From contig OZ237775.1 in the NCBI GenBank assembly GCA_965178125.1, positions 310,001 through 374,000 on the forward strand: a stretch of 64,000 bases of DNA, written 5' to 3'. The position numbers and the translations under genes are program-made. Each line of letters begins with the position of its first letter. Position 1 is the first letter of the stretch. The stretch is from Bilabrum cf. latius. Taxonomy: Eukaryota. The notes under the pieces were generated by a model that searched no databases, was not told where the DNA came from, and worked only from the letters and a program-made list of their open reading frames with translations. Positions 4,649 to 63,999 of this stretch are shown here, one piece after another.

Positions 4649-4861
4649 TTGATTGTGAAACCGGAGAAGCGAGACAAAGATAAAGATTCTGGCTCGTAAA
4701 GTCCGCGAGGAGGCAAGTCAATTTGCTATTGTTAACGTTGCGAGCCCCTGTCGGCCTGTCTGATCCGGGAGTCCCCTGAACGGGACCCGGATGTGTTACG
4801 TAACCTTACAATTAATCTATTATCAACATAATTTACCTTGGATTTCAGCGCATATGGAATT

Positions 4862-8299: not shown

Positions 8300-8612
8300 A
8301 ATTTGTAAAAATGCCAATTCAGTTTGCTGTTCATGTACTAGCAGAAACCGGAACCGGAAGCACAAGCACAGCCGAGTGCTCCCGTCGCCCGGGGGATCAC
8401 AAATTCACACAATACAAAGGTAAACATCCTTCAGGCAGGCTCGTGCAGCCAATCGTCGCGCTGCCTGGACGTCAAGGCGCTGGACATCTGCTGGCATGTC
8501 TCTACCCAACCACACTGCAGGCTCGCTCGCCCCAAGCACCTCACTGGCAGCTTCAAACCACTCTTTTGGATAGGGAACCATACAGTCGCTTCGTGACCTA
8601 GCAATTTGATAT

Positions 8613-20663: not shown

Positions 20664-20805
20664 GGGGCGTATCCGGGGCTTCGGGGGTTATGTGTGCGTG
20701 CGGATATGCACGCGTCTCGTACGGATTTGCAGTTCAGCAGCTCCGTCAGACGCTGGTCGTCACACAGCCGCTTTGGCTAGCGCGCTTCAGAAGTCGGTGT
20801 TTGGG

Positions 20806-28796: not shown

Positions 28797-28882
28797 GCTT
28801 TAAGGACTAGCTCAGTCCTCTTTCGGTCCTGATCCAGATGCTTTAAGGACTAGCTCAGTCCTCTTTCGGTCCTGATCCAGAT
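28797..28882. repeat. Perfect 43-bp tandem duplication spanning the stop codon of the giant ORF
   Basis: GCTTTAAGGACTAGCTCAGTCCTCTTTCGGTCCTGATCCAGAT at 28797-28839 and 28840-28882. Confidence 0.95.
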
Positions 28883-31800
28883 TCCGACTCGGATGCGTTC
28901 TTCGTAGCACTCTTCCTCATTTTCCGCTACCTCACCTTTTGATTGGTCCTCTTGCTGAGCTACCTGAGCACTCCGTCGATTGTTCCACTGACCGGCTTGT
29001 CCTCGCCGGCAGTGGACTTGACAGCTTTTGACGAGTTTCGGAGCTACTCAATCTTCGCATCAATCATGCTTCGTCGAGATGCAGTCCCTCTACGACCTCG
29101 ACGACCACCGCCCTAAGGGACACCTTTGTTATCAAGCTGCGCTGGCTGAGAAGCAGCCGGGCCACTACGAAGGCGCCCCGCAGACGCAAGAGGGTTGCTC
29201 GACCGGATTTCACCAGACTCCGGCTTGGCCTTGGCCCCCTCCAGTAAGACTTGACGCTCGCTTGGGGTGGCAGATCCCGACAAGGAAGCCACTGCAGACT
29301 AAAGGCCAGTCGCGAGGGCAACCACAGAAGACGCTGCGCTATTGTGCCCACTGGCTGACTCCGCAGGTAATGAAGGCTTAGAACCTTCGGTCGGCTTTGG
29401 CCCCTTGGGCGGCTCTCTCTATTTCGGCCTGATGCTTGGACCAGATCGCAAGTGCTATGCGGATCCATCGGAAGACTCTGGCCGCGCCACCGCCTCGTGC
29501 CCGGAAGCGACTCCAAGTTGCGAAGCAGCCGCCATGCGGCGTCCATTCAAGGGATTTGGTACAGTGGACATTGATGACGTGCCCTTGGCGGAAGCACTTG
29601 CTGCATTTGCGATCGATTCTGCCCTTGTCGCCTTCCCAATCTGCGGCGCAGCCGAAGGATCGAATCGGGTCGGATCCCTCCGATCAGTAGCTGCTGCATC
29701 TGCCAAGCGCTTGGACTATTGTTCCCGGATGACGTCTGTAACATCTTTTGGCGAGCCACGGGGGGGATGCCTGGCAGTACCGCTTTCAAGCTGCGGGCCT
29801 CCGTGTCCTGCCGCGCTAGAGCGGTCTGGCTCACCGCCGCTCCCGTCTGCTCGCGATCCTACCATTGCTAGCGGGGACGTAGTTGATGCTCCGGATGTCT
29901 TGCTTTGAACACAGCACAACGCCGTGACCGCAGCTCCCGCCCCAACGCACAGCGGACTGCATAGCTCCGAAGTCTTCGCGTACGGCACGGCAAGCACACT
30001 GCTTATCACTGCAAAGAATGAATGAAGGTCCGTCCGGAAGTCCACTAGCACGCTTACGAATAGCACACCATTCGCAATCATCATGAACCACGCCGTCGTG
30101 GTCTCCGCAGACATGCCGTACACGGCCAGCGGGTCGTCGCGTCTCTCCAGCCGAATAGCAAATGCACCCAGCAGGGTCAGCAGGGCCACGACAAGCGCCC
30201 GCACATCCAGAGAGTTGAGCAGGTTGTCGTATTCCCATTTGGCAGCCGGCACCTGCCGGACCATGCGGCGGAATCGTGGCACTTCGTCATCCGCAGGCGC
30301 AGTCTCGCTCTCCTGTGAGGATGCAGCAGCAGCAGCAGCGCCCCTTCTTCCGCCCCGCTGCCTCTTTTCTCTCCGGCGTCTCTCCGCTCGCTTCCGCTCC
30401 CTGGCTGCCTCTTCATCCTCTTCGCTGATGATGTATAGGTCTACCTTGTTCCTCGCGCACACAAAGTAGTCGGCGTGTGACAAGTGGTGCTCGTCTAGCA
30501 TGTCGGGCTCGTCGTAGCAGTAGGGTAGCTGTATTCCACCCAGGTGTAGACCTGCGTCATCAGTTTGGATATCGGCTGAGTTGGATGCAGCACTGCCGAG
30601 CTGGGTCCGACGGAGAGGCAGCCGCTCGCCAATTCGGACTTCGCTTGACCGCTGCGGATCACTAGGTGCGGCACTCCTGGCTACAAGCCAACTGGGAAGC
30701 TGGTCGGAATTGGATCCGGCAGAGCCGGATATCTGGCAACTTGCTGCGGCTGATGCTCTGGCCCCGTCCCGTCCGGACGTTCCAGACTATCCTATTTGGC
30801 TCACATCTTTGCCACCGGGCCTGGTCTCAGCAACAAGCGGATTTGCACGTCGGGATTCGAGTAAAGTATGCACGCTGCTCCGGCGTGGTTTCACCTTCTT
30901 GGTATTGTCGGACTGCTCACGCGGCTTGAGCACCTCTCGAATCGACTTGTACGACTCGGAGTCTTGTGATGAGAGTTGGACGGTCTGGGCAGGGACAGCG
31001 CGGGCCCGGTACAGCCACCTGCGGATGGCGTCTCGTCGCTGGGCCTTTCTGTATCTCCGTGCCCGTGCATTGCACGCAACGAAGGGCCAACTAGACAGGC
31101 AGCAATACAGACAAGGGGTATCATCGTAGGGTTTCTCGAGAACGTCCGTCTCGTACAGGATGTAGTCTCTCTACGATGACGTGCCTGCAGTGTCCTCGCC
31201 GATTCCCTCGCTTATTGCCTGGAGGATGGAGCGGCATGTCTCCTTGTGGCGCTTGATCTTCTCTCTTAATGTCTACGCCTACGCTCGCTTCATTGCAATT
31301 GGCCAGTGCAAATGGAGGGCTGGGTCATGCTGCTCCAGATCCGGGGGTGGTGGCAGCCTGGTCTTGATTGCGTCCACCAGGTAGTCGAAGAGATGCTCGC
31401 TCCACTGTCTGTAGGCCGTGTCTTCCATTGTGTCCCATCGCACCTTGACCGCGGGCTGATCATCGGAGCTGCTGTGCTATGAAGCAGCGGCGTTCCCTTG
31501 CGAGGACATCGACGAATTGCGCTGCACAGCGAGGCTTTGCCTCCTGCGTGGTGCTTGGCCACCATGATTGAGATCATTTCTGTTTGAAGAATGCAACTGA
31601 GCTTGATTGGCTTCACCACCAGTTGTACTGTCCAGTGCACCGTCTGTCTCCTCCAGCACTACTTCGTGGTGCGAGTCGATCTTAGGCAGTGGGAGCTTGT
31701 CCTTGGTCAGCCTTGGGGCCTTCTCGTACGGTCGAGCAAACGACTGCAGCCCGAGGTACACCACGAGCACACCTACCATGAACAGGATCTGCACATCTGG

Positions 31801-34800
31801 CCCAAGAGGGGCAAGCACCGTGGCTGCAAAAGCGTGAAGGCCTTTCCTAGTCAAATTCACAGCCTCCCAGTACTTGTGTTGATCTCTCAGCCCCTTAAAC
31901 AGGAAACTCATGCTGTATTCCTGCCTCTCGAACCACTCCTTCGTGCCTTTCGGTCGGCACTTGACGAAGCACACAACCATGACAGGCACACCTACACTGA
32001 ACAGCATCAGCATTGGCAGGGCATACTGCAGCATCTCCGCAAAGTTCGTGTCGCACTGGTACGTGAGGTCCATGGCGAGACGCAGCTAGCCCTACTGCCT
32101 CGGGATGGTGCCGTACAGCTCGAGGTCAGCCACGGCTTGAGCAGTTCCAAGCCCGTTTGCCGCGTCCAGCAAGTTGATGGCGCTTGTGTTTGTACCCTCT
32201 CGCGCCTCCTCTGCTGCAGACTCACGGGCAGCCGCCAGGGCTTGGAAGCCTGGCCCATCTTCCGGCTGGATGACCCTGCATGACAGCATGCGCAGGGCTG
32301 CTTCCGTGATGGGGGTGTGCACGAAGAAGACCAGGAGCAGCACAGAAAGGCACATGCGGGCCTTCCACAGGTCCCAAATCTGTCCGAGCTGTATCTTGCT
32401 CGTCACACCGACTTCGATCGGGTGACCATCATGCACCTTGCCATGACCCTACGCTTGCTGGCTCTCTACGTCCGTTGAGTCTTCGACCTGCTTCGAATGA
32501 TCCCCCCGTGACTCGTGGCTCTTCTGGAATCTAGAGCCAAACCGGCGCTCCATCTCATCCCACGGCGGCAGATGGGATATGATAGGCGATGTCGTATCAC
32601 TAGGCTCAGTGCGTGCTACCAACCGCCTGCTGCTACCAATTCCACGGGAAGACAGCGCCTGGCGACTGCTTGACCTGGTTAGTCCACCATGTCGACTAGC
32701 AGGTGCGGGTGCTACTGGCGTGCCACGCTGTGGCATCATATTCAGAGCAGAGTTCCCTCCTAGCCCGAGTCCCATTCCTAAGCCATCATCTGCAGTACCA
32801 GCACCCTCACCTACACCTGGTGGGCCCACCAGCTTCGGGCCCATGCTGCCGCCAAACTGCGCTACCTGCATCTTCACATTGCGCTCGCAACCTATGCGGG
32901 CCATGCACGAATCAGGCACGCATCTGCAGCAACATGCGTCTGCCCACCTGTGCTTCTTGTATTCCTCGTCTTTCGGATTCCAGGCCTCCTGTGCCCTGAA
33001 TGCATCCCACGCAGCTCGTTTGGAGGCGCGAGTAGGGTATCTCGACTGATCTCCCTTGATCTGTCCTGCGAGCCTCAGCACGTCTTTCCACTCCTGCGTC
33101 TCAAAGCAGAAGCAGAGAACGTCTTCTATTCGCGGACAGAACCTGTCGCTGGGGCGGATTGGATTCCGCTTGAAGAATGCCAGTATGTACTGTATCGACA
33201 GAGCCGCAATCCACACCACGGCAGCGTATGCAAGCAAACCCAGTGGGAAAGAGTACTGCAAGAGAGTCTTGCCTGTGGGCTCTGTCGCATCGGGCAAGGA
33301 GCATTCCAGTGCCAGTCCGTTCATGGCCGCCGATGATCCAACGCTGGCAGAGGAGAAGAAACTCTGCAGCGTGACTGGCCAATCGATGTCCAGCTGCCCA
33401 ATGATCGCAATGCTCTGCACATGCGTGAAGATGATCTTGGCCGCGACCACTACCTGCTGGGACTCTGCTGTTTGCTAGTCCCAGGCCCGAATCAGGATGA
33501 ACGCAATCAGAAGTGCAACGATCACGCCACCGGTCAGCTTGGTTGCTAGATCGGTGAACGATTGCTCGTCGCCGCTCGGGCATACCGCACATCTGCCGCT
33601 CGCCGTCTTGTAGTATCCCGGGGTGCAACGCTGGCACAGCACGCCGGTGTGTCCCTCAATGCACCTCTCGATCGTTGCAGGATACATGGTCCGCTCCACG
33701 GTCATTGCGTGAGGCCTGTCCAAGACGTGCAGGGCCTCCAGCAGGATGGCATCGCTCTCGGGGGGTCGAAGCATGAATGGGACCATGCTGCCGTTGTCTG
33801 CCCGAGCCATAACGAACGATGGGGGCGGTTCTGTGGATGCAAGTGCCTGCATGTGTCGATGACCAGTGGGCGTAGAGCCGATGAGGCTGTCCGCACGGCC
33901 CATAGTCTGCATTCGTCTTGCATCTGCGGGCAAAGAAGCCTCACCGTCTTCACTTGGCGCATCGGTCGGTGAAAGGCGACCCGTGGTGACGACCTCTGTC
34001 AGCTGGAGCACGAAGTCCTTCCACTGCATGTGCACATCTGCCAGCGACTCATCGCCCCCAGCGGCTTGCAATGCAAACTCCTCCGCAGCAGAGGGCTCGA
34101 GCGAAATCTGTGCCGACTACGTGCGCTGGTCAGCCGTAGCAGCCGCATCAGGAACGCCCAAACAGAACTCCGGATTGTCACACGCGGCAAATCCAGTCCC
34201 GTAATACGACCATGGAAGCCTGTAGAATCCTGACTGAGCCGCGATCCTGTCCGAGGAAAAACCGCCGCACACTGCACCTTCGGGACACGGCATGCACTCC
34301 TGGGACACGGGGAGTGTGGTCGGCAGGAACCGAGAGAACTGGCAGTTGGACTAGACTGGAGCCTGCACATAGGCCCACTCGCTGTATCGGACCTTCGATT
34401 CATCACCATTGGCCAGGTGTTCCGCCCGGACCCGCACGATGTATGGGGTCGGCTCCTGCACGTTGAAGGAGGTCTCCGTCATGAACCACCCTCGCAGGCT
34501 GCCGAGGTCCGAGAGATCCTCGGCGTCCATGGGCTCCCCGCTGTGTCGGTCCACCGCTTGATCCAGCTCGTTAAGTACATTATCTATGGACAGTAAGACA
34601 TCATCGGACTCGTATGTGGCGGGGCTTGCGCCCGCATCCAGCACATCTGCCAGTCGGTCACGCAGCGTAGCCACCGCATCCGATTGAAAACCGTCCTGCA
34701 CCCATGGCACCCTGCTGGAAGGCAGCGGCTCGAGCCTCTGCTGCAGATGTGTAGTCTGCGCGGCAGTACCAAAGTCCTCCATGCGCGGCGCCGCTTCAAT

Positions 34801-37800
34801 GCGGAACCTGCTCGTGGCCAGGAAGTTCAGTGCAGTCTGTCCTGCGATCGCATTGACTGCCAGCTGCTCCAGGTCCGGGTGAGGATAGAGCCACCTGACG
34901 ACGATACGGAGATTGTCACCGACCTCGCGCCAGCTGCGGGGATCTAGCGGAGGCACGGGCGGCGGGAAGTTCTGCGCAATGCCTTTTGGGATTAGACGCG
35001 CGCCCTCAGGTGCATCCATACCGTAGTTTCCAGGTGGCAACAGGTCAGATGACCCTCCGTTTGTCTCATCCGAAATACCAGAAGCCATAGGAGATCCGTC
35101 AGCCGTATACCGTCTAAGGTTCGACACATTCGTGCGAGTCACCACCTCGATACCGACGAAAGGCTGCACAGACCCGGGGTTCTCAGTGACGAAAGTCCAA
35201 AGTGGATGTTCCTCTGGAATGGTACAGGAGAGGCTGGTTTCTCCCAGCCACCAATCAGCCGGGGTCCCATCGCACGGAACGTTCCCAACTAATATTGAAA
35301 CGATGTCTGTGCTGTCCTTGCCGAATCCCACACCGCGGATCGTGATCTTGTCTCTAGGACCTGCCTCCGATGGTGATACCTCGGTAATGGCTGGTGGCGG
35401 CACCAGCTCAACTGCGTTGGATAGATCAGAGGAGAGACCCTAAACCGTAACGAACGAGCCAGACAAAGGCCACTGCCCTCCGATGACACCACGACCATCG
35501 GTGTCAGTTGGGGCGCTTTGCGCTTCTGCAGCGGAGACCCAGTTGAGCCCAGAGCAACGAATCGATCGACCGGACTGTAGAACTTCCACGTCTTTGCATT
35601 GCACGCCGCCCAGCTGCAGAGCCGAAATCTACCCTACCGCTAAAGCCAGTGAGTCGCCATCCAAGATCAGGTCAACGTCAGCGTCGCCTGCCAGCACCCA
35701 TTCCGGCGAAGATGAGTCGAGCTGCGGTCGGCAGTACGACATGGTCAGCGGTCGAGACACAACGCCTGATATCGTCTCAAGTGTCACTTCGACGTCCTTG
35801 CCTGTGCCAGCCGGCATCATGAACTCGATCAGCTCGCTGGATCTGTAAACTGCCGCCGCCTGTCCAGCAGCAATGTACTGAAGGGAATCAGTCGGGGAAG
35901 TGACAGGGAGGCTGACGCTCAGCACGTGGTCCTCCACGCCCATCAGCCTAGAGCCGTTGTTATCTATCAGCCTGCTCACTTCAAATAGCCCGTCGCCTGT
36001 CGCGGTAGCGTTGAAACCGAACTTGCTTGCCTGGCTCGAGAGATCGTATCCCGTGAGAATCACAGCCCTCAAGTCGTCCGCACTGTTTCCAAATCCCAAG
36101 CCCTGGAGCTGGATGCTGGCATCGCCTCCAGTTCCAAGTGTGTTGGGGCAATCGTCATACGAGATGGATGTGAGGCGAGGAGGCGCTTCCAGATCCACAT
36201 CACTGAACTCAACGGACAGACCCGCAACTGTGACCTCCAGCACGCTGCTGCGCCATGCCACGAGCTGGGTGAGGTCGTTCAAATCCCAGCTGTACTGTAA
36301 GCACACAACACACATAAACACTTCAGAATTCGATGCAGCCGAGAGTTGTGCAAGTGTACCAGGAGAAACGAGCAGCAGCTGCTCAGCGTCCTCGACAGAT
36401 ACCTAGTCAAGCGAACTACACTCCACCCCGCCGAACTCCACCTTCGTCGCAACAAGAACATCCGTACCAAAGCTGCTTCCACATACTGCCCTGGGTCTGG
36501 TCTCGCCATACATCAAGTGTCTTGGATATGCAAAATCGATCTTGGGCGGCTCGTACGACATCGATCCTATGGCTAGCGTGCCTGTTCTCATAACTACCAG
36601 GACAGGTGTGTCGCTTCCCGCTCCTGGCGGCACATCGACCGCAAGCTCTGACGCAGATACCCATTGCACCGGACTCGATGCCTGCGATGATACCGAACCG
36701 ACTGTGGAACTGTCTTGGTACGCCAACGCCATGGGTAGCGTGCGTCCACCAACCTCTGTCTCATTCATCACACTCGTCACAGCCAATGCAAGCGAACACG
36801 ATTGGCCCACCACATCAGGTGCTGGGCTGGAGCTCGGAGTTGCAGTCGGTGTTGGAGTCATCGATGGTATTGGCGATGGGGACATGCTGGGTGTCGCTGA
36901 TGCCGATGCGTTCGGGCTTGCTGCAGGGGTTGACCCTGAGGCACTACTCGGGCTGGCCGATACAGATGCGTTGGACGGCAGCTCTGACGAATTTGCAGGA
37001 CTGGCTGACGATGACGGAGACACTGGAGGTGAAGGGCTGGGGCTGACAGTTGCTACACTCCCATTGGTTGAGGTCTAGTTTGCAGGCGAGGCTGATGGTA
37101 TCGCAGTTGCGCTGGAACTGGAACTAGGCGTCGGGCTCGGACTCGGGCTTGTTGTAGTTGCGTTTGTTCCATTTGTGGAAGCATTGCCTGCATGGCCATC
37201 GAATCCTGTGCTGGTGTCATCATCGGTGCCATTTGAGTCGCTCGCGCGCCTGTGCCATCCGGAAGGCTGGGCCTCCAGCCGACGCGTCCCATTTCCGCTG
37301 GTAGCGTTGCCTGCCTGTGCGGTAGGAGTCGCAGTGCTTGATGGAACGGGAGACGGCGACGCTGACTGAGATACATTGCCCGTCCCATTGGATGCCATAG
37401 CCGAGGGCGACGCGCTTGCAGAGCTATTGGACAGCGAGGGCGACGGCGAAGAGGAGACGCTCACTGACGGACTCGGAGTCGAAGTCACATTAGCTGTGGG
37501 CGATACCATCGATGAATTCGTGCTCTCGGGGGTAGCCGTAGGGCTCGGCGTGGTGCTCACATTGCCGAATACCCCGTCGTCGTCATCCGAAGCCAGCGGT
37601 GAGCTCGTGGCATTGGTGGGCGGCTGCACCGGCGTTGTGGACGGAGAAGGCAGCGCGCTGCTCGATGGTGTGGGCGCGACTCCTCCGTTCATGTAGCTGT
37701 CAAAGCATGCGAGCTGCCGAACATCCGGATCGCCAAAATCCTGCTCGGCCTCCAGCATCGATGTGGACCAAGGACCGAACACAACTGCCACAACATCCCG

Positions 37801-52800: not shown

Positions 52801-55800
52801 AAAACGCCTGGTCGATTCCAGAGCTGGCAAAGTCTCGACCTCGGAAAAGTCGTTTTGCATGCAAATAGCTAGTACATTTGCGACACCTGCGATCTACGTC
52901 CCTGCCTGCCAGCCCGCTTGGAGGTACTCCGGCAGTGGAGCTAGGACGCCTGCAACGCAAGGATGTCCGGAACCAGCTGCCCGCATATCTATCACCTGGA
53001 CACCAGCAGCATCCGGCATGGTGCCAGAGAATCGAATGATACCATCGTTGCTAGATGACGATAGCAAGCCCAAACCGGCTGATAATGCTGCGTTCATTGA
53101 CACGATGCCCACATGGAGCTCACCGCCACCGACAGCGTATTGTCTTCCGATGCCCCTTAGAATCCTTGCTTGGACTGCCTAGAGACCGGCTTGCTCTGGA
53201 GAGCGGTGGGTATCTTGAGGAACCACTGGCCTGATCAGATTCTTTGCAATTGCTTCCAGCCCGGAATGAATGTCTGCCATTGGCTTGCCCGACTGTTGCT
53301 CATTATTTAAAAACGTTGCATCGCTTGCAAGCACCGAGCTGAGCTAACCAACTAGCGGGGCAATGAACGCGTGTACCTGGCCAAATTCAACTGATTGGGT
53401 CCAAGTCCCCTCTTGAACGCTCCTCGCAACCTCACTTGAAGGCCAGGATCCGTTGGAATCGACCGCACCTGAAGCAGCAATCCCCGAAAGGGGCACAGCG
53501 AGAGAGACAGACACGAAGTCAATATACGGCGGCACAAACTGATGCAGCCGGCCTTGTTCCTCTGAAGGCACCGACGAAGTATAACGGGGCAGCATATCAC
53601 GCACGTCTACCTCGATTCCAGTCTAGTCTGGGTCAAATAGGACAAGGGAGCCTTGTCCAAAGCTTACCTGCGGGACCATGCTTCCGGTTAGGAGACGTCT
53701 CGTGGTGTGAGGTCCGATTGAATCGAGTACATGAGTAGACCTCACTGCGTGCGCAGATACAACCTGCAGTGCAGAGCCACCTGGCCTCCGCATGCAAGCC
53801 ACTACAGCCACTGGCACCGCACCGCTGGTTGTTGAGTAGAACGCAGGATACTGCAGCAGAATCACTATTGCCGCATCGCACGCCGACCCATCAAGATGGT
53901 CACGAGGGGCGAATGCCACCCGCGATCCAAACGCTGGATTGCTTCCTGGGATCGGACCTATCGCGCTCCGCATCAGCGTGGGCCTAGCAGGTGTGATGAC
54001 CAGCGTGTCTTGGACGTGGGCATACCTTGCAAAATCGGGCGTGTTGCTTGGTGCAACCAGTGTGATGAGGAACACAGCACCTTCCATATCGTCCTCGTGC
54101 ATCTCGATGGTCTGGGCCTGTGGATCTGCAACGGCAACTACGCGGGTATCATCGATAGAAACACCAGTATTCACCAGCTCAATGTCCGTGTCCACGTTAG
54201 CGGCGCTGACACTGGCCCCAAATGCGCTCCGACCAGCATCCAGGCGAATTGTTGCACCTCGAATGCTGCTTGAAAGTGCGCTTAGCATTAACAGTCTTGG
54301 CATGCCGATGTACTCCAGACTAGGCCCCGAGTGAATCTGCTACTTGTCACACATGCCAACCATCCCGCTCACTTGATTTGCGACATCCTTTGCAACCGGG
54401 CGGACAAGCATCGGGCTGTGCAATAGGTGACATGTATGGCTGGAACTGTCGTACTCGAACGTCCTGCAACGATCAGAATCATCACAGAGCTAACTGCACT
54501 GCGAGACACTGGTCGCCATGTGGTTTCCGAGTGTGTCGAAGCTAGCACGCCCCTGCGTGCTGCCGCCAGGTACCACACTGTGGCAGTTGCCAAGCACCGA
54601 ATCTGCGTTCGTGGGTCGCGCCCCGACCAGCAGAACCCCGCCCGTTTCCTCACCTCTTGGGGTCTCGAAGGCTACGTCAGGCGCACCAATCGCGAGCAAC
54701 ACTTCATCATCGGCGGGTCGCTGCAACGGTTCAACAAGAGGAAACACCTGCACTTCGGCAATCTGCAGAATTGTGCTGTTTTCTAGCTTGAAAACGACGA
54801 CACGAGTGCCCCCTCGTCCAGTGCAGTCAAAATCCGTGTATGTTCTCCCTTGGCCAGACCGTTCGGTCTCCTCCAATGGCCGCTCGCATTGAGCCAGGGA
54901 CTGCAAATGCTCTATCACGCCGGTACTCTTCGGTGGCGTTGCGCTACTTACAGCTACCCTGAATTCCTTATTTCGCACGTCATTGTTCTACCAATGGTAT
55001 ACGCGTACAATGCCGATGTCCTAGTGCTGCTGCAGGGTCACTGCCCACCACGGGTAGTCATCCCTAGGGCTTTCAGCTGAGTTGTAGTGGTTTCCCGGCC
55101 ACGTGATGCCATCCACTGCTTTTTCGGGAACGTGATTGGGGCCAAGTTCTGATAGACTATCTGCAGGACGTCCCTCGGCCAAGTTTGCGGCTGTGTACGA
55201 AGCTAAGTCAGCGGCAGACTCGGTTGCAGTGATGCCGTTGGCCGGCCCAACCACTGCGATCGTGGCTCCAAAAGACGAGTCATCATCTGAGGCAACTGCG
55301 GCTATCCCTGGGCGCAGCAGCGATCGGATGCCATCAGAGACCTACAGCATCTTTGGATAAATGAAAGAAACACCTCTCTACGCGAGATTGATGCCAGCAG
55401 GTGTACCGCCCAGTCCCTCTGGAATGGACATGACTGGGACACCCTCAGCCCGAGGATATACCGAGGCTCTTGTGAAGCCAAAGTTGGTCTTGCCATCCGA
55501 GGTCTTGGCTCTGTACACAACCGACGAATCCACAGGTCCCACGCCGTACTCTGCAACAGATGGTACGAAACCCGCGTGAATCAGCTCGAGTTCTGAGACA
55601 CTCCGACTCCCGGCGGATCTCCTGACTACAGCACCTCCGTTTGAATGGGTAGTCACGATCTATTGTCCATGACCAACCGAAGCAAGTTCCTCGACGAAGT
55701 ATGCCTTCGAATCCTGCCTATGCTTGCTTCCATCATTCTTCAATGCAAGCAATACAGCGTCATGGTTTCGAGTATGGAACTACATCCCGCGCACTCCAGG

Positions 55801-58800
55801 GAGTCTCAGCGCAGCCGCTGCATCCCACGAGTCTTCATCAGAGGTCATTGCACTCGAGAAGCAAAGCGCTGGGCGAGTAGTAGCACTGGAGCATGACTCA
55901 AGCGTCCATTCAGTACCATCCGTGTGCACGCACTCGCCCTCACTGGATGTCTGCGTCTTGTCCCATTCGGACTCATCTGCAAAGTAAGATGCCGCCGCAT
56001 GCACAGGCAGAGGTACAGAGTGCAAGAAACTGCGAGGTCCAGATTCCTAGACCCGATGCATCCATGCATTGCTGGTATTGCCTCGTTGGATTGGCAGCCA
56101 GCAGCCCTCCAAACACAGGTGCTTGGCCACCTCGCTTCGAGAGGCAGACACCAGTCCACCGCTCGGGAACGCGAAGCTAGCACCAGCCACCGCAGCGTTG
56201 CACGCTTGCTGAGCGCTGGAGACGACAGTGGGTGCTGATGTACTCAAGCAGTACTTCATGTCAACGTCAATTACGCTCCCGGTCGGGCAGCTCGTCCTCA
56301 TGCCTGCATAGCTCGCAGGTCGCATGCGCGGCACTGAGCCCGCGGGCGGTTCATGCGAGTCTCCCTAGTAACAGCCTATGCAGTGAGCCAGTGCAAGAGT
56401 AGCGGGGCCATTCGGATTTCTGTAAAGCACTGTTACATCGTGTTGACCATACAACACCGGTGGGTCAACGCATGCAACCCACAGCAATGAACTGGCCTCG
56501 GTCCTTCTCCTCGAGTCAAGTTCGTTATGTTTTCCGATCGCGAGCAGACTACACCCGGCATCGTTGGGAATGTTCCCGAATTGGATTGACAGCATAGGTG
56601 TTGAGGTTGACGTTACCTCCCCTCCTGCATCGAATAGCCATGTCCTCTTGCCTTGCAACACAGACGCTCCCTCTGCAGATAGCTGCACTGCACCTGTGTG
56701 CTCTCCTAGCAATCCGCGGGCAAATGCCCTAGAGACGTGCATGGAGAACATAACGACGCCATCATGGGTCCCGTTTCCACCACATCCCGATGATAGTCCA
56801 GACCGAGTGCACGTGAAAACGCTCCTCGCTCTCTCCCAGATCCTCGCCGTTGATGACTGGGTCTGTAACGTAAAGACGGTGTTTAAGGGAGCGGCGGGTT
56901 GGCTACTACCTTGAACGATGTCATTGAATGCAGCAGCCAGGCGTATAGCCTACTCTTTCAATATCTGTGGAAGTTCCGCGATGAGCTACACCAGGTTGCT
57001 GCGACTACTTTGCACAAGCACGGAGATCAGCTGAAGGGCATCACTACGAATATCCATGCTAGGGTATGCCTGCAGCACAGCAGGCATATTCGCGACTGCC
57101 GATTCTGGCGTTGACTGCCAGAACAGATCGGACCTGTTGGGCGCGAACCCTCCAGCTGCAGGTTGGGCATTGGGCAATCTCGCGAGCAGCAACCCTGGAG
57201 AAGCAGAAGACGTGTCACTTGCTACCAGGGGCACTGCTACCGCTGACTACACGCCGTCAGCCACGAGGCCAGTGCTCACGATCCGCCATGGCAAAGGGTT
57301 CATGTGCTCACCTCCATCGGTGCATCCTAGTGGCTCCGCTCGGCACGCCTACTCAGCCCAGAGGACCGTGCTTCCGTTTTTCTAGCCGGGACGGTATCCT
57401 CTGGAGATCTGGCCGGGACCTACAGGTGCAAAATCGACCCAGATCAAATGCGATGCCTGTGTGGGTGCTACGGCAGAATTTTCGATGCCTCCGTATAGGC
57501 GTGAGAAGACTCGCACGACACCAATAGAAGTGCTTTGCCCGAGTCCAAGCCACTCTCCGACCCGCCCGTCAGGTGGAGCCAGCGGCCAAATGGTGGTACT
57601 TCCAGACCCCTTCGGTGACAGACTCTGCCACTAAGACACAGTCAAGGCAGCGAGGTCTCCTGCATTCGGGCTTGAGGTAAGGTGAAGCAGCTGAATCTCC
57701 CCTGCCCCGTTGTGGGCCCCCGGGGCGCCCACCAGAAGCATGCAGCTCTTTGCTGGAGCCGCTGTGATTGATTGGCTTCCTGTTCCGAGGATGATTGCAC
57801 CATCAGTGGAGCCCGCGGCGGTATCACACCCTAGCCACACCACCGCATGTCCCCAGTCGTCGCCCGCTGTGGCAGCATGATGAGGAATCCCATTGGACCC
57901 CGGCATCAGAGCAATGGCACTGGAGTATCGCGGCAACCAAAACTGCCCCCTTGCTTCCGATTCTAGTCCAACCACTGCGTCTCGTGCGGATGCAGACTCA
58001 TCTAGCAGGCCGAGGATCCAGATGCAACCAGGGATCTCCTCAACGGAAGATCCGACAATGGAGCGAGGCCGCGTCCCAATCGCGACCATTTGGGCCGCAT
58101 TGGTACCCTGCTGGCTAGAACTTGCTTGGATAGACAGCGAAGAACCTATCACTCGGAGAGATGCAGCCGCTTGCATTGCTACGGTCTTGCGAGTGTCGTT
58201 CGGAGTCGCCTCAACCAGAGTACCCGCGTTGACTCGTCCTACAGGGAACGTCTCAATTCGGGCCAGTGAATCCGCCCTGCTCACGCGTGGCACTGATACT
58301 AGACCGGTCAGCTCGACGACTCCCGCCTCATCTCCTAGGGCCTACGGCTCGACCTCGCACACAACCCCCCTTGACAAGTCCCCGCTCGTGGTGCTCCTTA
58401 GACCGGAAGTGCTTCTGATCTGTCCTTGGGCATCAAGATCAACCTTGAGGTAGAGCTTGTCGAGGCTGGGAATGTTTCCATTGTACCACAAGGTTGTATC
58501 AGCTGGATAGTTTGACCCGTCCGAGAACTTGCCGCCGCTGCCATCTAGCCAGCACTCGTTGTCCTCGTCAATCACAGTGATGAATTCACTGTCGTCATTG
58601 TACTGAGACACCTGCGTGCAAACAGACATAGCCGCATCGACCTGGGCTCTAGTCCTGGGTGCAGCCACTCGAGCGCTGAATTTGCCATCACTTGAGGAGA
58701 ATATCGAGGCCTCCTGCTCTGTGATGAATCCAACGGCCCGCATGAAGTTAGCCTTGCACATGATATCGCCCTAAGACAGGGTGTGCTACACTGCAACATT

Positions 58801-61800
58801 ATTTCCATTGAATTCAATGACTCCGACGTGGTAGCACATGGAGCTGTCCGAGCTCCGGGTCCATCCTGTGGGGCATGCGGCTGCAGATGTGACAGTCTGC
58901 AGCCGCTGCGAAGCGATCAGCCTTGCAGTAGACAGTGGTGCTTTTTCGTCACTCTGGCGCGACTGATCGATAGATCCCAAGCTGTGCATGAGCATGTGGC
59001 TGGCAGTCTGCCTACTGACATTTATCGTGCTTGCCAGGGCTGAAGACTCCTCGAACACCGCTTCATGCATCACTCGTGAGGTACTGGATCCCCTGGCTCT
59101 CAACTCCGATACACACTACGCCACTGGAGCCTCGCATACGTACTACGATGGGTTGCCAGCACTGCTGCATGCACCCAGGTTGTACCCTGACTGATACGAT
59201 GGCACTTGGGAGCACACCGCGGCCCCATCGATCTCTCCCGTTGCATTCGTGTGGATCGTTGCCTCGCCACCACCATCGCGGAACAGCACCCATCCGTCAT
59301 CCAGTCGCTTGGATACGAGAAACCTGGACAGGAAGCGCAGTTCGGACAGCGAGCTGACAGTTGCGATTCGACTGAGTGGATTCTGCTGCCTGCACGCGGA
59401 CTCAGCCTCATCTAGGCTTGTCATTACCCCACTGTGCACCTAGTAGGACGAGAAAACACGCTGTCCACTTGCAGTCAGAAACCGCGTGTCACTGAGAGTT
59501 GCCGATGGTGCGGCAATGGCACTTGCAGCAGAACGAATCAACCCAACCTCGCTGACGGGTGCAACAGCCAAACCAGACCCCACCGCCATTGATACGGTGG
59601 ACACATTCGCATGCAAGTACAGGCTATCGATACCACCCGCACTCTCAGCTGGTACATGCGTGCTTCCTGCGACAGTAGGACATGCAAGTCCGTTACCGCC
59701 GGATATCAGTGCAATAGGCTGCACAAAGTAAGCCCCACCTGAGTCTTGGACTGTCGCTAGTAGGAGACTGCCGTTATGTGCCGGAGGGCCGAGCTTCGTC
59801 AGATTGCCTGAAGTGGAAACCAGAACGCCAATCCCACCAGACCCCTAATCGTCGAACATAGGCCCCACTGTAGCCATCTACTCGCCTATTGCGCTGTCTG
59901 TAGGCACCAAGCCCTGCAGGAATTCCGCAGTCGCGCCACTCTGGTGTGCGGAGTCCCATGCGAGCCGGTCCGCCAACGAAGAGGAGACGGCAGTGTTTTC
60001 GGCCGCAGGAATAGGCATGTACTCGACGCATTGGCGGCATATCATCTCAACGGAATCCTCGGTGAAGTGTCCCGACGCATGCAATCGAACGGTTCCGTCA
60101 GCCAGTGCAGTCCCAGCAGTAGTCGTAGCCAGCTTGTCAACAGGAATATCAAGCCTATCAGGCATCCCCACGCATTCAACTGCTACAAGATCTGGCAGCA
60201 AAAATGACATCGGTACAACAGACACATTACGGCAACTTACACTGCCGACTCGAACGGACAAGTCGAATTCACCACCTTCGCTATGGCCACTTGCTGCAAT
60301 GTGCCTGATCGCTGCCGCGACCCACGGCCGTTCAGCACTCCCGACCCAAACTTCCAAAAACACGCTGTGCAGTTCAGCGTCAGGGTGCACCTTCTGCAAG
60401 GCTGCGGGACCGCAACAAGCTGCAAGCGACCCTTGATCTAGCCCCGCAAATGCACCTCCGGCCTCCTAGTGCTGCCTCGCTGCACCGGCCCGGATGACCG
60501 CATCCCCAGCACGCTGCCTCACGACTGGATGCAACGGAGCGATGGTCGTGACTGCATGGTCCAAAACTGGCGTGCCACCACCGATGACAGGTGTACGAAA
60601 CTGCATCCACGGTACTTGATTCAGTAGGCTCGTCTGGACCACAGGAGTGAACATTTGCGCACCAGAGTCGGATACGTTGGAGGTGATCAGTCCCGCCCAA
60701 ACCCCGACATTGGGATTTGTGTTGCCAGCCAGGGATGGATGCATTGCCGATGCACCGGTCATGGTAGGCATGTGCACATTCAGGCTGGATGCGCCCTGAG
60801 CTACACTGCCTGTCAGATACGCCTCACCGAGGTGCATTGCCTAGACACCGAACCTGGAGCTTTCCAACGCCTGCATGAAATCATTTCCACGTGTCGGAAT
60901 ACCAAATGGAAATGCAAGCAACGAATTCAAATGCTGGAAGCTGATCTGGACCGCAGCATATCCTGACTAATCAGCAAGCACGACTGACCTAGCTCGAGCG
61001 CATCCAACTGTTCCTGCCTGGTGCGCAATCATGCGGGACAAAGCCCGGTTTATTTTGCTTGAGCCATTTGAGTGAAGTAGCATCTTCTGAGCTTGTACCA
61101 GCCTATCGGCAAGCACAATATCCGTGCCTGTAGACGCGTGCGCATTTGCATTGCACTCCTCGTGCACAGCACTTCTTCCAGGTGGCACGTAGGGTCCTGA
61201 CGACACCCTAGCTCCATGCCACCAGGAACCTTGCCCCCTAAGCGTGCGATTAAAGACGGTTTGTCGAATTGAAACGCTAGCAACGGCCTCGAATTTCAAC
61301 GAATTGCTGCTGTCGTCGTCATTCAGAGCTGCCTCTCTCACGACGGTGACAACCGCTGCCGGCGGGTCTCTTTGCACCCTGACAGCAGGTCGCTGGCACA
61401 AGGCCGGGCGTGGGGCACTGCAACTCGCCACCGCGTATTGCAGCTTAAATGTAGGCGGCGGCCCTTGTGACTGTGACGAGGCTAAAATGCACTGTGCCGC
61501 AGTACCGGTCAGCAGACTGGACTGGTCACGACACGCCTTGCGATACTGAACACTGTTCGCTGTTTCTGACCGCACTGTAACCCCGGATTGAACAAAAGCT
61601 GATGTCGATCCCTGGAGAGCGGCACCAGCGGCATTTTCGTCATTGTCACCCTCAACAGCGCAGGCTTGAACCGGTACCACGGAGCTGTTTACTCCGGCTC
61701 CCAGCGCTCTGCAAGCTGCTTGCGCATTTGTTTGCATGACACTGTCCTCTGTGGTACGGTAGCACACCGTCGTTTCATAATCATCCCCACCAAACCATCC

Positions 61801-63999
61801 GCTGGGACAAACGTGCACCGAATCCTATTCTTCACTGCCTACATTACTATCATCTTGTTTGAACCCGACTGCCAAGGCGAACCGGGTCTCGGCCGCTGGC
61901 ATGAAGCTGGCTGTGCTGTAGCCCTGCTTCCAGGCTTCTTCCACACTAGCGAAACCATCTTCCACATCTAGGGGAATATCGAGATTAGAAACCGTTGTTG
62001 ACCCACCAATGAATGCTAAGGATTGACCGAATCCTTCGAATGCCCCGGCCCCAGTCGCACGAGCTGCCAGCGCTGCTTCTCTTCCCAGGCCCCTGCTTGC
62101 AACCCACCCCGGCACACCACGAAGACCTGCGTGATTCACTGCTGGTGCAATGGCATTGACATGCAGTACGCGCGCCTAGATATTGCCAGACTCTCCAAAG
62201 GTGGGTAGCACATCTGCTAGCACGACCCGGCCCTACCCCTCGAATGCACCGGGGGCACCAATGGCGAGAATGATCCGGCCATCTGCTCCTGCTGGCCGTT
62301 CACCAGACAGTGAAGCCCTCGGAAGCACAGACAAGCTTGCACCAAACATGTAACTCTCGCTGGCGCACCCCAGCACTCCAGACATGATCTAGAATCCACT
62401 GCAATCAGTTGCTTCTAGCCGAGCCACAGACACAACTGGCTACTGCGAGTCTAGCGAGCTTCCAACGCCGTCGAACTTGGACCGAGGAGAACTATCGACT
62501 GAAAACGAGAGCCTCAAAGCCATAATCTCGACAACTCCTTTCTGCGAATCTTCCTTTGGAAGCCCAGTCGCTATCAAGTGCACCCCGCTTCTTGCCAGTG
62601 GAGCAACTGCGCCGCCCGCGGCAGCGCTATAAATCGGATATGTCCTACCAAGGGAAGCCACCGAGGCGCCAAGCGACACATCGGTGGTCTTGATACTTAA
62701 AGCGTTGTCAATTTCCGATGAGACAATGGAAGATGCCACCACCTGCACCTGGGGTGCCTTTAAGCCCTAGCCTGCACCCTCTTGGGTGTTAGTGATGAAA
62801 ACAATCGCAATGGCACCCTAGCCGCCGGTTGCATCGACAGCTCCCTGCTTGAACAATGGTACACCCATGGCGACTGCTGTGACTGGCGCTAGCACGACAT
62901 GCTTTTTGGTCGTGCCGCAGCTCTCGGACGGCATGGCAGGGAAGCCAGCGAGTGTCACCTCTGGCAAGGATCTAAACCTTGCGACATCCAATGCTCCTTC
63001 TTGGTTAAAGTACATGCTAGAGTTTTGATCGTCCGCCAGACAAGCCCCAAGGTACAGGCCACCGCCAAGGATATCGAGGGATGTCACAGATGCCCCATCG
63101 GTAGATTCCCATTCAGGGTTTGTGAGCTCTGTACGGTGGGATGCCGCAGCGTTGATGGCTGGTGCCAGGGACACGCCAGCAACAGGCTGTGCGCTGGAAA
63201 TCGTGCCACTAGAGCTGCGTAGGCCGTGCACGAACGGTGACGATAGCAGCAATGGCTTTCCATTTGACTCGGCAGCTGACATGATCGTTGATGCTCCTGA
63301 TTGCGTACTTGATGCGGGTCGCAGTCCAGAAGAGTTGGCATTGCTGCCAAGCGCGCCCTGCAGGCCCTAATCAGTGAGTGACGGGTGACTGCCGACACCG
63401 TATGACACACACCCTGAGCATACTGCCGTGACATGCCCAACCACCGCTGTCCTTCCGAAGAGAGAGGACCGCACCATTGACTGGCTGGAAGTATAACCGG
63501 AGGAGCCAGTCGGCTAGCCTGATGTAGATGCACCCACGTCACACACTGGACTATCGGCGGGAATGGCAAGTCCACGCAGCAAGCTAGCAGCCTATTGCGC
63601 AGTCATGTCCGCCCACCCGGCGCTGCATCCATCCAGTACAATCGAGTACGTCACCTCAACATCGGTTGAGCTGCTGCTGCCAACTGGCACGGACGGAGCA
63701 CCTGGCGAGCCCAGGCACGTCACCCATGCCAGTGACTCAGGCCCTCCTCGAGGCATGCCCGATTGGAATCGCCCCATCGCGCCCACCTAGCACGGCGTCC
63801 CTCCGATCCTAATGCTCTCAAGCACAGCCCTCGCCCTCCTGGTGCCGATCGCCCCATCCGTTTGCACAGCACCACGACCGATAGAATCCGTCTCGTTCTA
63901 AACCAGCACGGGCGGCCAAATTCGCTGCATCGACTGCGACGCAAGCTCAGCACCTTGAACTTGACGTGACCCTTGGCCGTGGATGGCAGCCAGCAGCGG
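28855..63999 (-). CDS. 5'-partial giant intronless cell-surface multi-pass receptor-like protein (>=11,714 aa): FG-GAP-like repeats, C-type lectin domains, fucolectin/F5-8C-like domain, IPT/TIG repeats, mucin-like stalk, Cys-rich repeats, multi-TM domain and cytoplasmic tail
   Basis: 52 minus-strand track ORFs from 29455 to 63786 share one frame and all end in TAG. The gaps I read contain further TAGs but no TAA/TGA until TGA 28855-28857. Motifs: CPSGW..CYR..AQAACRALG; NLAEGRPA..KAVDG..PWWAVTL; VGAPG/IGAP; PAITEVSPSEAGPRDKITIRGVGFG; CMPCPEGAVC and CIEGHTGVLCQRCTPGYY; KIIFTHVQ..IDWP; YWEAVNLTRK. Confidence 0.85.

Follow-up and report, generated by a model that had tools for sequence, protein, structure and literature searches.

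A reading frame of at least 35 kb in Bilabrum cf. latius that probably encodes a giant multi-pass membrane glycoprotein

Overview

Within a 64,000-nt stretch of Bilabrum cf. latius contig OZ237775.1 (positions 310,001 to 374,000; hereafter the window), we found a minus-strand reading frame that is probably one gene, read with TAG as glutamine, for a glycoprotein that spans the plasma membrane several times and is at least 11,714 residues long. The encoded protein is likely to act at the surface in adhesion or sensing, a claim that we hold slightly less firmly; channel-like signalling through its transmembrane (TM) module is a tentative proposal. Such a protein might be a glycan-binding adhesion or sensing receptor that serves prey recognition in a phagotroph, as a preliminary description of this DNA, made from the letters alone, had supposed.

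Extent and integrity of the reading frame

Retranslation with TAG as Gln and a search for in-frame TAA or TGA, both proposed in the preliminary description, reproduced its continuous frame with matching coordinates: positions 28855..63999 (-) comprise 11,714 sense codons and a terminal TGA, with 106 in-frame TAG, no TAA and no internal TGA. The frame (63999->28855) is 5'-open at the window edge and is thus at least 35 kb long, encoding more than 11,700 residues. Across the same 35,145 nt, the other five frames each carry 36-55 TAA and 109-315 TGA codons, and their longest runs free of both span 184-495 codons, as against 11,714 in the giant frame. Because about 2% of codons in these other frames are TAA or TGA, so many clean codons could not have arisen by accident, and a chance origin is excluded. 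The codon-position signature GC1>GC2 persists through almost the entire frame. Under the standard code the frame breaks up, as had been anticipated, although the earlier figure of 50 or more pieces was too low: there are 107, the longest of 895 aa (44734..47421).

Contigs from public runs of three further studies (X5, 13,555 nt; X6, 7,603 nt; and small X7 pieces) were compared with positions 28853-48499 and showed no differences, indels or joints; since they are identical there, the in-frame TAGs of this interval are not assembly errors. The run contigs break at a perfect 43-bp x2 tandem duplication (28797..28882, unstranded) that spans the stop codon of the giant ORF. We are highly confident that the frame is a single real gene read with TAG=Q, and it is apparently intron-free.

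Genetic code

Reading TAA as Q as well (table 6) leaves the limits of the giant ORF unchanged, so that TAA as a sense codon is needless. The six other long ORFs in the window contain 1-16 TAG each that must be read as sense; five of them terminate at TGA and one at TAA. Pooled over all seven, there are 169 TAG against 494 CAG and 236 CAA in 19,436 codons. Three metagenome loci retrieved using the TM module, L003 (4,552 aa, 48 TAG), L002 (1,628 aa, 16 TAG) and L001 (486 aa, 4 TAG), are open only with TAG as sense. In their pairwise alignments, the residues opposite TAG (n = 117, drawn from overlapping sequence pairs and not fully independent) include 22 Q, 12 R and 11 S, with nine each of E and A. 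Glutamine is the best-fitting residue, with E the runner-up at -29.3 nats, and its share opposite TAG equals the Q self-match rate (0.188 vs 0.192). These comparisons support a nuclear code in which TAG is translated as glutamine while TAA and TGA are kept as stops, which agrees with the table 15 behaviour first suggested.

Membrane module and its family

The multi-TM block noted earlier maps to aa 10155-11364 (29908..33537, -), a module of about nine helices that is collinear with compact homologs of ~400 aa in four blocks spanning nine TAGs. Two inserts enlarge it from ~400 to ~1,200 aa: one of ~270 aa between TM3 and TM4 (aa 10271-10541; 32377..33189, -), which is disordered, and one of ~500 aa between TM7 and TM8 (aa 10761-11258; 30226..31719, -), which is highly charged and whose start is conserved in relatives. 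It is followed by a 349-aa C-terminal S/A/G-rich tail (28858..29904, -), the composition of which (K+R 15.5%, D+E 9.2%) bears out its earlier description as basic; it is also disordered, as that description had it. The giant retains all 14 of the family-conserved positions tested, which run from Q122 to P410. An AF2 model of the compact homolog P0003, which is 36% identical to the giant's module, is a helical membrane bundle (pLDDT 83.9, pTM 0.82), and the topology would place both inserts and the tail on the cytosolic side and the conserved Cys pairs outside. Two fold searches with this family model returned no clear solved counterpart for the fold.

Using phmmer with aa 10150-11349, we obtained 300 matches at E<=1e-3, 45 of them at E<=1e-10. 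Among 15 matches scanned, ten carry TIG, seven DUF7630, six PF06011, five RCC1-type propellers, one FG-GAP_3 and one Kelch; among 39 alignment members, DUF7630 was found in 21 and PF06011 in 19 (best E 2.2e-11). The family is distantly linked to PF06011, and the tie of the giant itself is indirect because its own score (12.8 bits) is below the cut-off of 28.5. Protein-level conservation between the giant and its relatives spans 3,400 aa: the collinear alignment with L003 covers aa 7945-11361 (E 0; 36.7% identity over 2,305 columns) and that with L002 covers aa 9658-11262 (39.6% identity over 1,754), in both cases across many TAGs. As judged from these alignments and domain matches, the giant belongs to a family, new here, whose plan runs from a variable ectodomain through TIG and DUF7630 to about nine TM helices, and the TIG, DUF7630 and TM plan is common to a large protist family with interchangeable ectodomains. 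This TM-module family is widespread in protists yet unstudied. The preliminary description did not include the family relationship of the TM block.

TIG array, stalk and Cys-rich region

Immediately outside the membrane module lies a Cys-rich juxtamembrane DUF7630 (aa 10111-10140; 33580..33669, -; Pfam 27.2 bits, cut-off 27), preceded by a DUF7631-like Cys-rich motif (aa 9900-9916; 34252..34302, -) that scores 17.3 bits, below its cut-off of 27; this region, aa 9900-10140, corresponds to the Cys-rich repeats reported previously. Farther upstream, jackhmmer, Pfam TIG and self-similarity identify seven IPT/TIG-like repeats (35110..39150, -) at aa 8284-8371, 8560-8626, 8690-8797, 9146-9232, 9268-9334, 9416-9503 and 9526-9630. 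Pfam TIG exceeds its cut-off of 20.9 twice, with 39.9 bits (aa 9536-9599) and 25.4 bits (aa 9352-9422). The array is interrupted by a mucin-like stalk, placed by composition (S 28%, P 15%, T 12%) at aa 8766-9070 (36790..37704, -). Both the repeats and the S/T/P stalk had been recognised in the preliminary description.

Ectodomain

The N-terminal ~8,000 aa (aa 1-7944) have no detectable relatives in homology searches; of 51 ectodomain segments, each 300 aa long, 39 match no Pfam family, and neither Lectin_C nor FG-GAP was matched in any of the 51. The best explanation is an ectodomain that is specific to this lineage and built from diverged beta-rich modules. A PAN/apple domain is recognisable by profile match at aa 3161-3205 (54385..54519, -; Pfam PAN_1 34.7 bits, cut-off 21.4, E 1.6e-8); it was absent from the preliminary description. 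An F-type-lectin/discoidin-like (galactose-binding-like) domain at aa 2938-3036 (54892..55188, -), previously called fucolectin-like, is near-threshold: phmmer against PDB gives E 0.029-0.037 to the F-type lectins 2j1r, 4gwi and 3le0, and Pfam F5_F8_type_C_2 scores 25.8 bits, just below its cut-off of 27.8 (F5_F8_type_C 21.3).

Several C-type-lectin-like and FG-GAP-like units, which had been described as interleaved, are only suggested by sequence pattern. The former include modules c1 (aa 726-870; 61390..61824, -; CPSGW...CY...C), c3 (aa 1704-1890; 58330..58890, -), c4 (aa 2566-2722; 55834..56304, -) and the adjacent c7 and c8 (aa 4910-5245; 48265..49272, -). A profile from nine such modules (A1) found CTLD chains in seven of ten PDB matches (E 0.011-3), an Atlas lead (0.90) links module c1 to a cluster in which 29% of members carry Lectin_C, and Pfam UL45 (C-type lectin-like) matches at aa 4913-4983 (E 0.025); against this, none of the modules has a Pfam Lectin_C match. 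Module c4 has a four-Cys pattern that by eye resembles a long-form CTLD, and by itself it retrieved nothing relevant from PDB by phmmer. The FG...GAP-like units stand on motif, with no Pfam FG-GAP match: aa 443-592 (62224..62673, -), with a canonical unit at aa 552-592 (FGASLSVL...IGAPGAFEGQGRVVL); aa 2049-2102 (57694..57855, -); aa 2910-3123 (54631..55272, -), in which the F-type-lectin-like domain lies between the FG and GAP halves; and aa 6075-6156 and 6254-6348 (44956..45777, -). A single-sequence AF2 model of aa 395-880, which include the first of these regions, reached a pLDDT of only 30.7.

Proposed function and alternative readings

From N- to C-terminus, the chain would consist of the ~8,000-aa ectodomain, seven TIG repeats split by the stalk, DUF7631/DUF7630, the TM module and the basic tail, with the N-terminus of the TM module outside and its C-terminus inside. 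We infer surface exposure from the architecture only, because the window does not reach as far as the N-terminus with its start codon and signal peptide. The ectodomain may bind glycans or surfaces outside the cell, and the conserved TM module, with its invariant polar and charged residues and distant PF06011 tie, could relay the binding event or membrane tension to the cytoplasm, either by letting ions permeate or by way of the tail and the two cytosolic inserts.

The same gene might instead encode mainly a structural coat or matrix protein, in which the TM module serves only as an anchor and takes no part in signalling or transport; variants are a glycocalyx anchor that is mucin-like and heavily glycosylated, or a molecule for self or mate recognition. 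The stalk, 87 N-x-S/T sequons and TIG repeats would suit such a protein, as would a fast-evolving ectodomain with no relatives, which is common for recognition or coat proteins, and the interchangeability of ectodomains within the TM family (RCC1, Kelch, FG-GAP and PMP repeats). However, nine helices whose W, E, R, K, Q and P residues and paired Cys are invariant throughout 39 diverse members far exceed what an anchor requires, and relatives partly conserve the two long inserts and the tail, which suggests cytoplasmic partners. We regard the coat-protein reading as rather unlikely.

Less probable still, and in our judgement very unlikely, is that the frame comprises several adjacent genes (such as some for secreted lectin proteins and then one for a shorter TIG-TM protein) with TAG context-dependent, being sense within genes and stop at their ends, as happens in eukaryotes whose stop codons are ambiguous. 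Inclusion of aa 1-7944 in the same gene rests on the absence of stop codons and of any other membrane anchor, so that an open frame alone links this relative-less part to the C-terminus; moreover, the largest proteins among 150 listed family matches (5,923 and 6,588 aa) are about half the claimed size. Three weakly hydrophobic stretches (aa 1259, 3495 and 7607) also count in its favour, but score only 1.75-1.8 compared with 1.83-2.4 for the TM block, and ectodomain modules with neither anchor nor signal peptide of their own best fit one chain. None of the seven long ORFs in the window ends at TAG, and L003 and L002 cross their 48 and 16 TAGs while remaining collinear with the giant. Stop-free juxtaposition in one frame is itself unlikely, as intergenic DNA carries stops and the other frames run for at most 495 codons.

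That the frame is an artefact, whether of mis-assembly, of pseudogene decay or of a chance lack of TAA/TGA in non-coding DNA, has a negligible probability: the frame is known from DNA alone and most of the ectodomain lacks a recognisable family, but the stop counts, GC signature, identical contigs (28853-48499), conservation over 3,400 aa and Pfam domains past curated cut-offs contradict it.

Comparison with known systems

The giant most closely resembles the TIG-DUF7630 (PF24633)-9-TM protist family, in which DUF7630 likewise directly precedes TM1 with TIG repeats upstream, and the module comes last, C-terminally, in very long proteins (2,570-6,588 aa among matches). It differs in its length, at least 11,714 aa or ~1.8 times the longest listed match; in its lectin-like ectodomain (PAN, F-lectin-like and CTLD-like), where five of 15 scanned relatives have RCC1-type propellers; in the two inserts; and in the TAG=Q reading.

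With the PF06011 'TRP' family, of which we take S. pombe Pkd2 and fungal Flc to be members, the giant shares a helical block with several membrane passes, preceded by a large extracellular N-terminal part and followed by a tail in the cytoplasm. For S. pombe Pkd2, PMC9727806 describes an extracellular N-terminal part, a cytoplasmic tail and Ca2+ passage on membrane stretch. No ML-like N-terminal domain was seen in the giant.

The architecture also follows the logic of animal receptors of the polycystin-1 (PKD1) type, in which a very large ectodomain containing lectin and Ig-like repeats is joined to a multi-pass module, with a proposed role in mechanosensation or the sensing of adhesion. No match in sequence or fold was found, however: Pfam identified no PKD, REJ, GPS or PLAT domains in the giant, and neither of the two fold searches with the family model brought a polycystin or TRP channel to the fore. 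Integrin alpha has FG-GAP propellers of seven units in a row with an inserted I-domain. Five FG...GAP units with an integrin-like consensus occur in the giant, and the lectin domain between FG and GAP halves recalls insertion into a propeller loop; unlike those of integrins, these motif-defined units, unmatched by Pfam FG-GAP, lie ~1,000 aa apart.

The host DNA (55-58% GC, multi-gene contigs >200 kb and long, apparently intron-free genes) is unlike ciliate macronuclear DNA. Codes with UAG=Gln and UAA=stop are described in PMC11687900 for Iotanema spirale, Protocruzia tuzeti and two phyllopharyngean ciliate lineages. The window resembles these lineages in its support for TAG=Q, in the lack of TAA from the giant frame and in a neighbouring ORF that ends at TAA.

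A single reading frame of at least 11,714 codons

On the minus strand of the window, the frame running from 63999 to 28855 ends in TGA after 11,714 sense codons. It contains 106 in-frame TAG codons, no TAA and no internal TGA; read with TAG as a residue, the whole region is one ORF, open at the window edge, and its limits are the same when TAA is also read as sense. In the following sections we refer to this ORF as the giant and number its residues from the window edge. Read in any of the other five frames, this DNA has 36-55 TAA and 109-315 TGA per frame, and the longest runs free of both codons span 184-495 codons; under the standard code the longest ORF in the region is 895 aa. Along the giant frame, GC1 exceeds GC2 in nearly all 500-codon bins. 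The frame is thus far beyond chance. A preliminary description, made by a model from the sequence by itself, had proposed a continuous minus-strand frame of more than 11,700 residues at 28855..63999, open at the edge and broken into 50 or more pieces by the standard code, with in-frame TAA or TGA as one observation that would speak against it. Retranslation with TAG as glutamine, as that description advised, returned this one open ORF; we counted 107 standard-code pieces, and neither kind of stop was found within the frame.

Contigs from four public sequencing runs (X1, X5, X6 and X7) were compared with window positions 28500-48499. Run X1, which may be the source run, yielded one 40,677-nt contig that crosses the compared region and continues ~21 kb further upstream of 48499; X5 yielded one 13,555-nt contig corresponding to 28853-42407, X6 a 7,603-nt contig corresponding to 42308-48499, and X7 small pieces. 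Over these 20 kb the contigs of all four runs showed no differences, no indels and no joints relative to the window. As identical contigs come from three further studies, the in-frame TAGs of this part of the frame are supported.

The X1 contig also provides ~5.5 kb more sequence past the window end (>64000), where the missing 5' end of the giant could lie. At the opposite end, a perfect 43-bp tandem duplication (two copies, 28797-28882) lies across the stop of the giant, so that the end of the coding sequence, the stop and the beginning of the 3' sequence are each present in two copies; the X1 and X5 contigs break exactly at this duplication.

Collinear homology with two metagenome loci, L003 and L002, spans many TAGs and argues that the C-terminal 3,770 aa of the giant are continuous. 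In L003, the counterpart of residues 7945-10109 is 36.7% identical (2,305 columns), and additional blocks reach residue 11361; in L002, the counterpart of residues 9658-11262 is 39.6% identical (1,754 columns). In a hydropathy scan of the giant, strong transmembrane (TM) candidates were found at residues 10155-11364 only. That residues 1-7944 would belong to the same gene is suggested only by the uninterrupted frame and by the lack of a second membrane anchor. The giant is a real gene, apparently intron-free and contained in one exon, though short in-frame introns are possible.

TAG is read as glutamine

Six other long ORFs in the window also need TAG as a sense codon (1-16 TAG each), and these end in TGA (five) or TAA (one). 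The domains recognised among them are all eukaryotic: RAB3GAP2_N, a GRK/PKC-like AGC kinase, GFO_IDH_MocA, DnaJ and DUF455. Together the seven long ORFs comprise 19,436 codons, among which are 169 TAG, 494 CAG and 236 CAA. A locus search with the TM module of the giant recovered three metagenome contigs, L001-L003, with 55.5-56.1% GC and open only when TAG is sense. L003 encodes 4,552 aa with 48 TAG and is 5'-open, its longest standard-code ORF being 243 aa; L002 is open over all of its 4,886 nt, with 16 TAG; and L001 encodes 486 aa with 4 TAG.

To assign the codon, we collected the residues opposite TAG in pairwise alignments of the giant and L001-L003 (n = 117, from overlapping pairs and so not fully independent): Q 22, R 12, S 11, E 9, A 9, and the rest lower. 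These residues were then scored, by likelihood, against the substitution pattern that each amino acid shows within this set of alignments. Glutamine ranked first, with glutamate second at -29.3 nats, and the share of Q opposite TAG (0.188) equals the ordinary Q-to-Q rate (0.192). In the neighbouring AGC kinase, one TAG lies opposite a Glu of GRK2, in a variable tail, which does not settle the assignment. Since glutamine has the best likelihood and its share matches its own self-alignment rate, TAG is assigned to glutamine. Judged from these alignments and from TAA and TGA, which are absent within the frames and used as terminators, the code is one with TAG as Gln and both TAA and TGA as stops, the behaviour of NCBI table 15 that had been proposed beforehand. 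A tRNA scan of the 64-kb window found no genes, and an Rfam scan of the window found no matches. Reassignment of UAG only, to Gln, is described in PMC11687900 for Iotanema spirale, Protocruzia tuzeti and two phyllopharyngean ciliate lineages.

Several features of the other window genes were recorded. The 2,032-aa ORF at 8613-14711 (-), with 14 TAG, has a kinase domain whose best match among solved structures is GRK2 (E = 2.4e-51), followed by PKC iota; an insert interrupts this domain, and ~1,000 aa of low complexity lie on either side of it. The 1,548-aa ORF at 2-4648 (+), 5'-open and with 13 TAG, has no Pfam match. It contains a linker rich in S/T/P and, close to the C-terminus, a hydrophobic stretch, and may be another surface protein. 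Between 14712 and 18605, ~3.9 kb at 52-57% GC contain no long ORF in either code and no Rfam or tRNA match. Short in-frame repeats and low-complexity expansions are typical of the window genes, as seen in the DnaJ-domain ORF at 20494-25446 (+), which has a triple GGQFDPR repeat, and in the DUF455 ORF at 25577-27439 (-), in which an SSGAGAGQAE stretch is duplicated.

Domains of the predicted ectodomain

Pfam scans of the giant were run on pieces of 900 aa and 300 aa. With hmmscan, queries of thousands of residues lost TIG matches that pieces of 300-900 aa recovered, and the first 2,500 aa of L003 (nt 2-7501) submitted as one query returned no family; long low-complexity proteins are therefore best scanned piecewise. 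Even so, 39 of the 51 300-aa pieces had no Pfam match at E <= 0.1. The matches above their curated cut-offs were PAN_1 (PF00024; residues 3161-3205, 34.7 bits against 21.4), two TIG repeats (PF01833; residues 9536-9599 with 39.9 bits and 9352-9422 with 25.4 bits, against 20.9) and, next to the membrane, DUF7630 (residues 10111-10140, 27.2 bits against 27). A further TIG repeat (residues 9104-9142, 14.9 bits), DUF7631 (residues 9900-9916, 17.3 bits) and F5_F8_type_C_2 (residues 2960-3036, 25.8 bits against 27.8) were below theirs; ectodomain calls other than PAN and TIG are under curated thresholds.

A jackhmmer search from the best TIG repeat recovered seven copies at residues 8284-9630 (nt 39150-35110), two of them above the Pfam cut-off. 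This array is split by an S/T/P stalk at residues 8766-9070 (S 28%, P 15%, T 12%), and the giant ends in a 349-aa tail that is rich in S/A/G and basic (K+R 15.5%, D+E 9.2%). We counted 87 sequons. The TIG repeats, stalk and basic tail of the preliminary description were thus all recovered, the last two by composition, as was the Cys-rich region, where DUF7630 and the sub-threshold DUF7631 lie; the positions it gave for these features were right to within a few tens of bases.

For the fucolectin-like domain that it had placed in the ectodomain, the position stood and the identity is less firm. A phmmer search of residues 1-4000 against PDB sequences returned F-type lectins only, at residues 2938-3035 (2j1r, a 'fucolectin-related protein', 4gwi and 3le0; E = 0.029-0.037), but the Pfam score remained below its cut-off. 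F-type lectins bind fucose through a His/Arg/Arg triad, and by eye this triad is not clearly present in the F-lectin-like domain of the giant.

Similar caution applies to the C-type-lectin-like modules (CTLDs) and FG-GAP-like modules that had been read as interleaved over much of the ectodomain. Several stretches start with CPxGW...CY and end with a Cys-bracketed strand. Pfam Lectin_C (PF00059) was not matched, with thresholds of E <= 1 for the 900-aa pieces and E <= 0.1 for the 300-aa pieces. Several leads point the other way. The UL45 C-type-lectin-like family matched once (residues 4913-4983, E = 0.025). A profile built from nine stretches, which align poorly at 22% mean identity, had ten PDB matches at E <= 10, seven of them C-type lectin-like and three irrelevant; the former include the FcRY receptor (E = 0.011) and, at E = 0.15-3, convulxin beta (0.15), EMS16, botrocetin, agkisacutacin and factor X-binding protein. 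In Protein Atlas, the nearest cluster to the TAG-free module c1 (residues 726-870) scored 0.90 and has Lectin_C on 29% of its members. A phmmer search of another such module, c4, by itself against PDB gave one irrelevant match. Together, these matches suggest, rather than prove, a C-type-lectin-like identity for the modules.

Five paired FG...GAP units fit an integrin-type consensus. In 500 shuffles the mean count was 0.06, for a pattern that was written after the units had been seen. In one unit the F-lectin-like domain sits between the FG and GAP halves; Pfam FG-GAP had no match in the pieces of the giant. The AF2 model of residues 395-880, which include module c1, was made without an alignment and was unusable (pLDDT 30.7).

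We also searched for relatives of the ectodomain. Word-seeded searches found none at E <= 1e-3 for residues 1-5000 against proteins of 5,500-17,500 aa (455 candidates), for residues 400-3400 against proteins of 30-5,499 aa (7,999 candidates) or for residues 5526-6420 against proteins of 30-491 aa (8,000 candidates); such searches need shared 5-mers, the first two sampled 100 words over thousands of residues, and distant relatives may escape them. The TAG-free residues 5526-6420 had no usable match in Protein Atlas. Comparison of the giant with itself (BLAST, phmmer --max) found TIG-like repeats only, along with one weak GAP-motif pair (E = 0.04); the ectodomain is thus no recently formed tandem array. 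Taken together, these searches indicate that the first ~8,000 aa are internally diverged and, within their limited sensitivity, lack detectable relatives.

The membrane module and its family

A phmmer search with residues 10150-11349 against 1.84 billion representatives returned 300 matches at E <= 1e-3, 45 at E <= 1e-10 and three at E <= 1e-30. Among the matches listed, the closest are fragmentary: they share 50-58% identity, measure 79-233 aa and start at an internal Met, as would be expected had relatives in this lineage been annotated under the standard code; the fragments are P0002, P0005, P0008-P0011, P0013 and P0014. In more distant matches the module forms the C-terminal part of long proteins, the longest of those listed having 5,923 and 6,588 aa. 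Domain scans of 15 matches found TIG in ten, DUF7630 in seven, sub-threshold PF06011 ('TRP') in six, RCC1-type propellers in five, and FG-GAP_3 and Kelch in one each. In a 39-member family alignment, 21 members carry DUF7630 and 19 match PF06011 (best E = 2.2e-11).

The compact relative P0003 (530 aa) holds the module in ~400 aa and matches the giant at E = 1.1e-35 (phmmer). The match consists of four collinear blocks, in which positions 12-122, 392-436, 487-609 and 1109-1170 of the query segment align with P0003 positions 88-199, 244-288, 288-411 and 413-473, respectively. The blocks are parted by two insertions in the giant, of ~270 and ~500 aa, and the start of the second is conserved in relatives. 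All 14 family-invariant residues (Q122, W134, P135, C160, C277, C301, G324, P326, W364, E365, R371, K372, Q390 and P410 in P0003 numbering) are identical in the giant, at residues 10195-10757; N417 and E420 of P0003 lie beside the second insertion, where MAFFT placement is unreliable. DUF7630 directly precedes TM1 (~residue 10155), with TIG repeats upstream, as in the family. By homology, then, the giant is a member of a TIG-DUF7630-multi-TM protist family, and the multi-TM block anticipated in the preliminary description is present and collinear with the family module.

Membership of PF06011 (Flc/Pkd2-like) itself is a different matter. The giant scores 12.8 bits against this profile (E = 0.052, profile positions 5-64 only; cut-off 28.5 bits), below the cut-off while 19 of its 39 relatives match, which makes it a distant relative of PF06011 and not a member.

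Evidence on the fold comes from P0003, a homolog with 36% identity to the giant. Its AF2 model, made with the 39-sequence alignment (pLDDT 83.9, pTM 0.82), shows long helices bundled together, along with two small hairpins. From the order of the helices we infer that the chain crosses the membrane nine times, starting outside and ending inside; the conserved Cys pairs would then be outside, and both insertions of the giant and its tail would be cytosolic. Foldseek found no PDB match to the P0003 model at E <= 1e-3 (best E = 0.15, TM score 0.13). In VIA-align against 48,161 chains, the best match was a designed helical protein (Z = 8.4) and the other rows were unrelated helical proteins; TRP or polycystin channels stood out in neither search. 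These results show neither a new fold nor an absence of kinship.

Possible function and comparison with known systems

The lectin-type, PAN and TIG domains, together with the sequons, the mucin stalk and the Cys-rich stretch next to the membrane, suggest that the large part of the giant faces outward, where it may bind glycans or surfaces. A role in surface adhesion or sensing seems to us reasonably probable; prey recognition in a phagotroph, a possibility raised by the preliminary description, would be conjecture. The invariant W, E, R, K, Q and P residues in 39 diverse members and the distant link to PF06011 suggest that the conserved TM module may do more than anchor the protein. Fission-yeast Pkd2, which we take to be a PF06011-type protein, offers an analogy. 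As described in PMC9727806, its N-terminal part is extracellular and its tail cytoplasmic, and it passes Ca2+ under membrane stretch. By this analogy, channel-like signalling by the module of the giant is conceivable, if doubtful. Less probable still, and put forward as speculation, is a new class of mega-receptor, in which a ~10,000-aa ectodomain of degenerate integrin-like propeller blades with inserted lectin domains would be hard-wired to the nine-helix module (a fold without a solved structure) as a ligand- or tension-gated ion pathway, in an unrecognised, environmentally widespread eukaryotic lineage with an independent reassignment of UAG only to Gln.

A standard-code annotation would shatter the giant into its 107 pieces, and its six neighbours as well, and whole proteomes of this lineage are probably mis-annotated. 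The fragment relatives, and the metagenome contigs that read through once TAG is glutamine, suggest that the lineage is systematically mis-annotated in metagenome gene calls. The window adds well-supported genomic evidence for the rare UAG-only reassignment to Gln, in an organism with environmental relatives. For structural and transport work, the large TIG-DUF7630-nine-TM family offers a concrete target: its fold is predicted with confidence, the fold searches gave no clear match among solved structures, and polar residues within the membrane are invariant.

Giant protist surface proteins and codes in which UAG is Gln are already known separately, and the giant belongs to an existing, uncharacterised family, of which Pfam lists pieces only as DUFs. 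What specialists may find notable is its size, its code and a family without a solved structure. With at least 11,714 residues in a single exon, the giant exceeds every other TM-family member compared, and is ~1.8 times as long as the longest relative among the matches listed. It further differs from the family in a lectin-like ectodomain without detectable relatives, in a TM module expanded three-fold by inserts predicted to be cytosolic, and in its rare genetic code.
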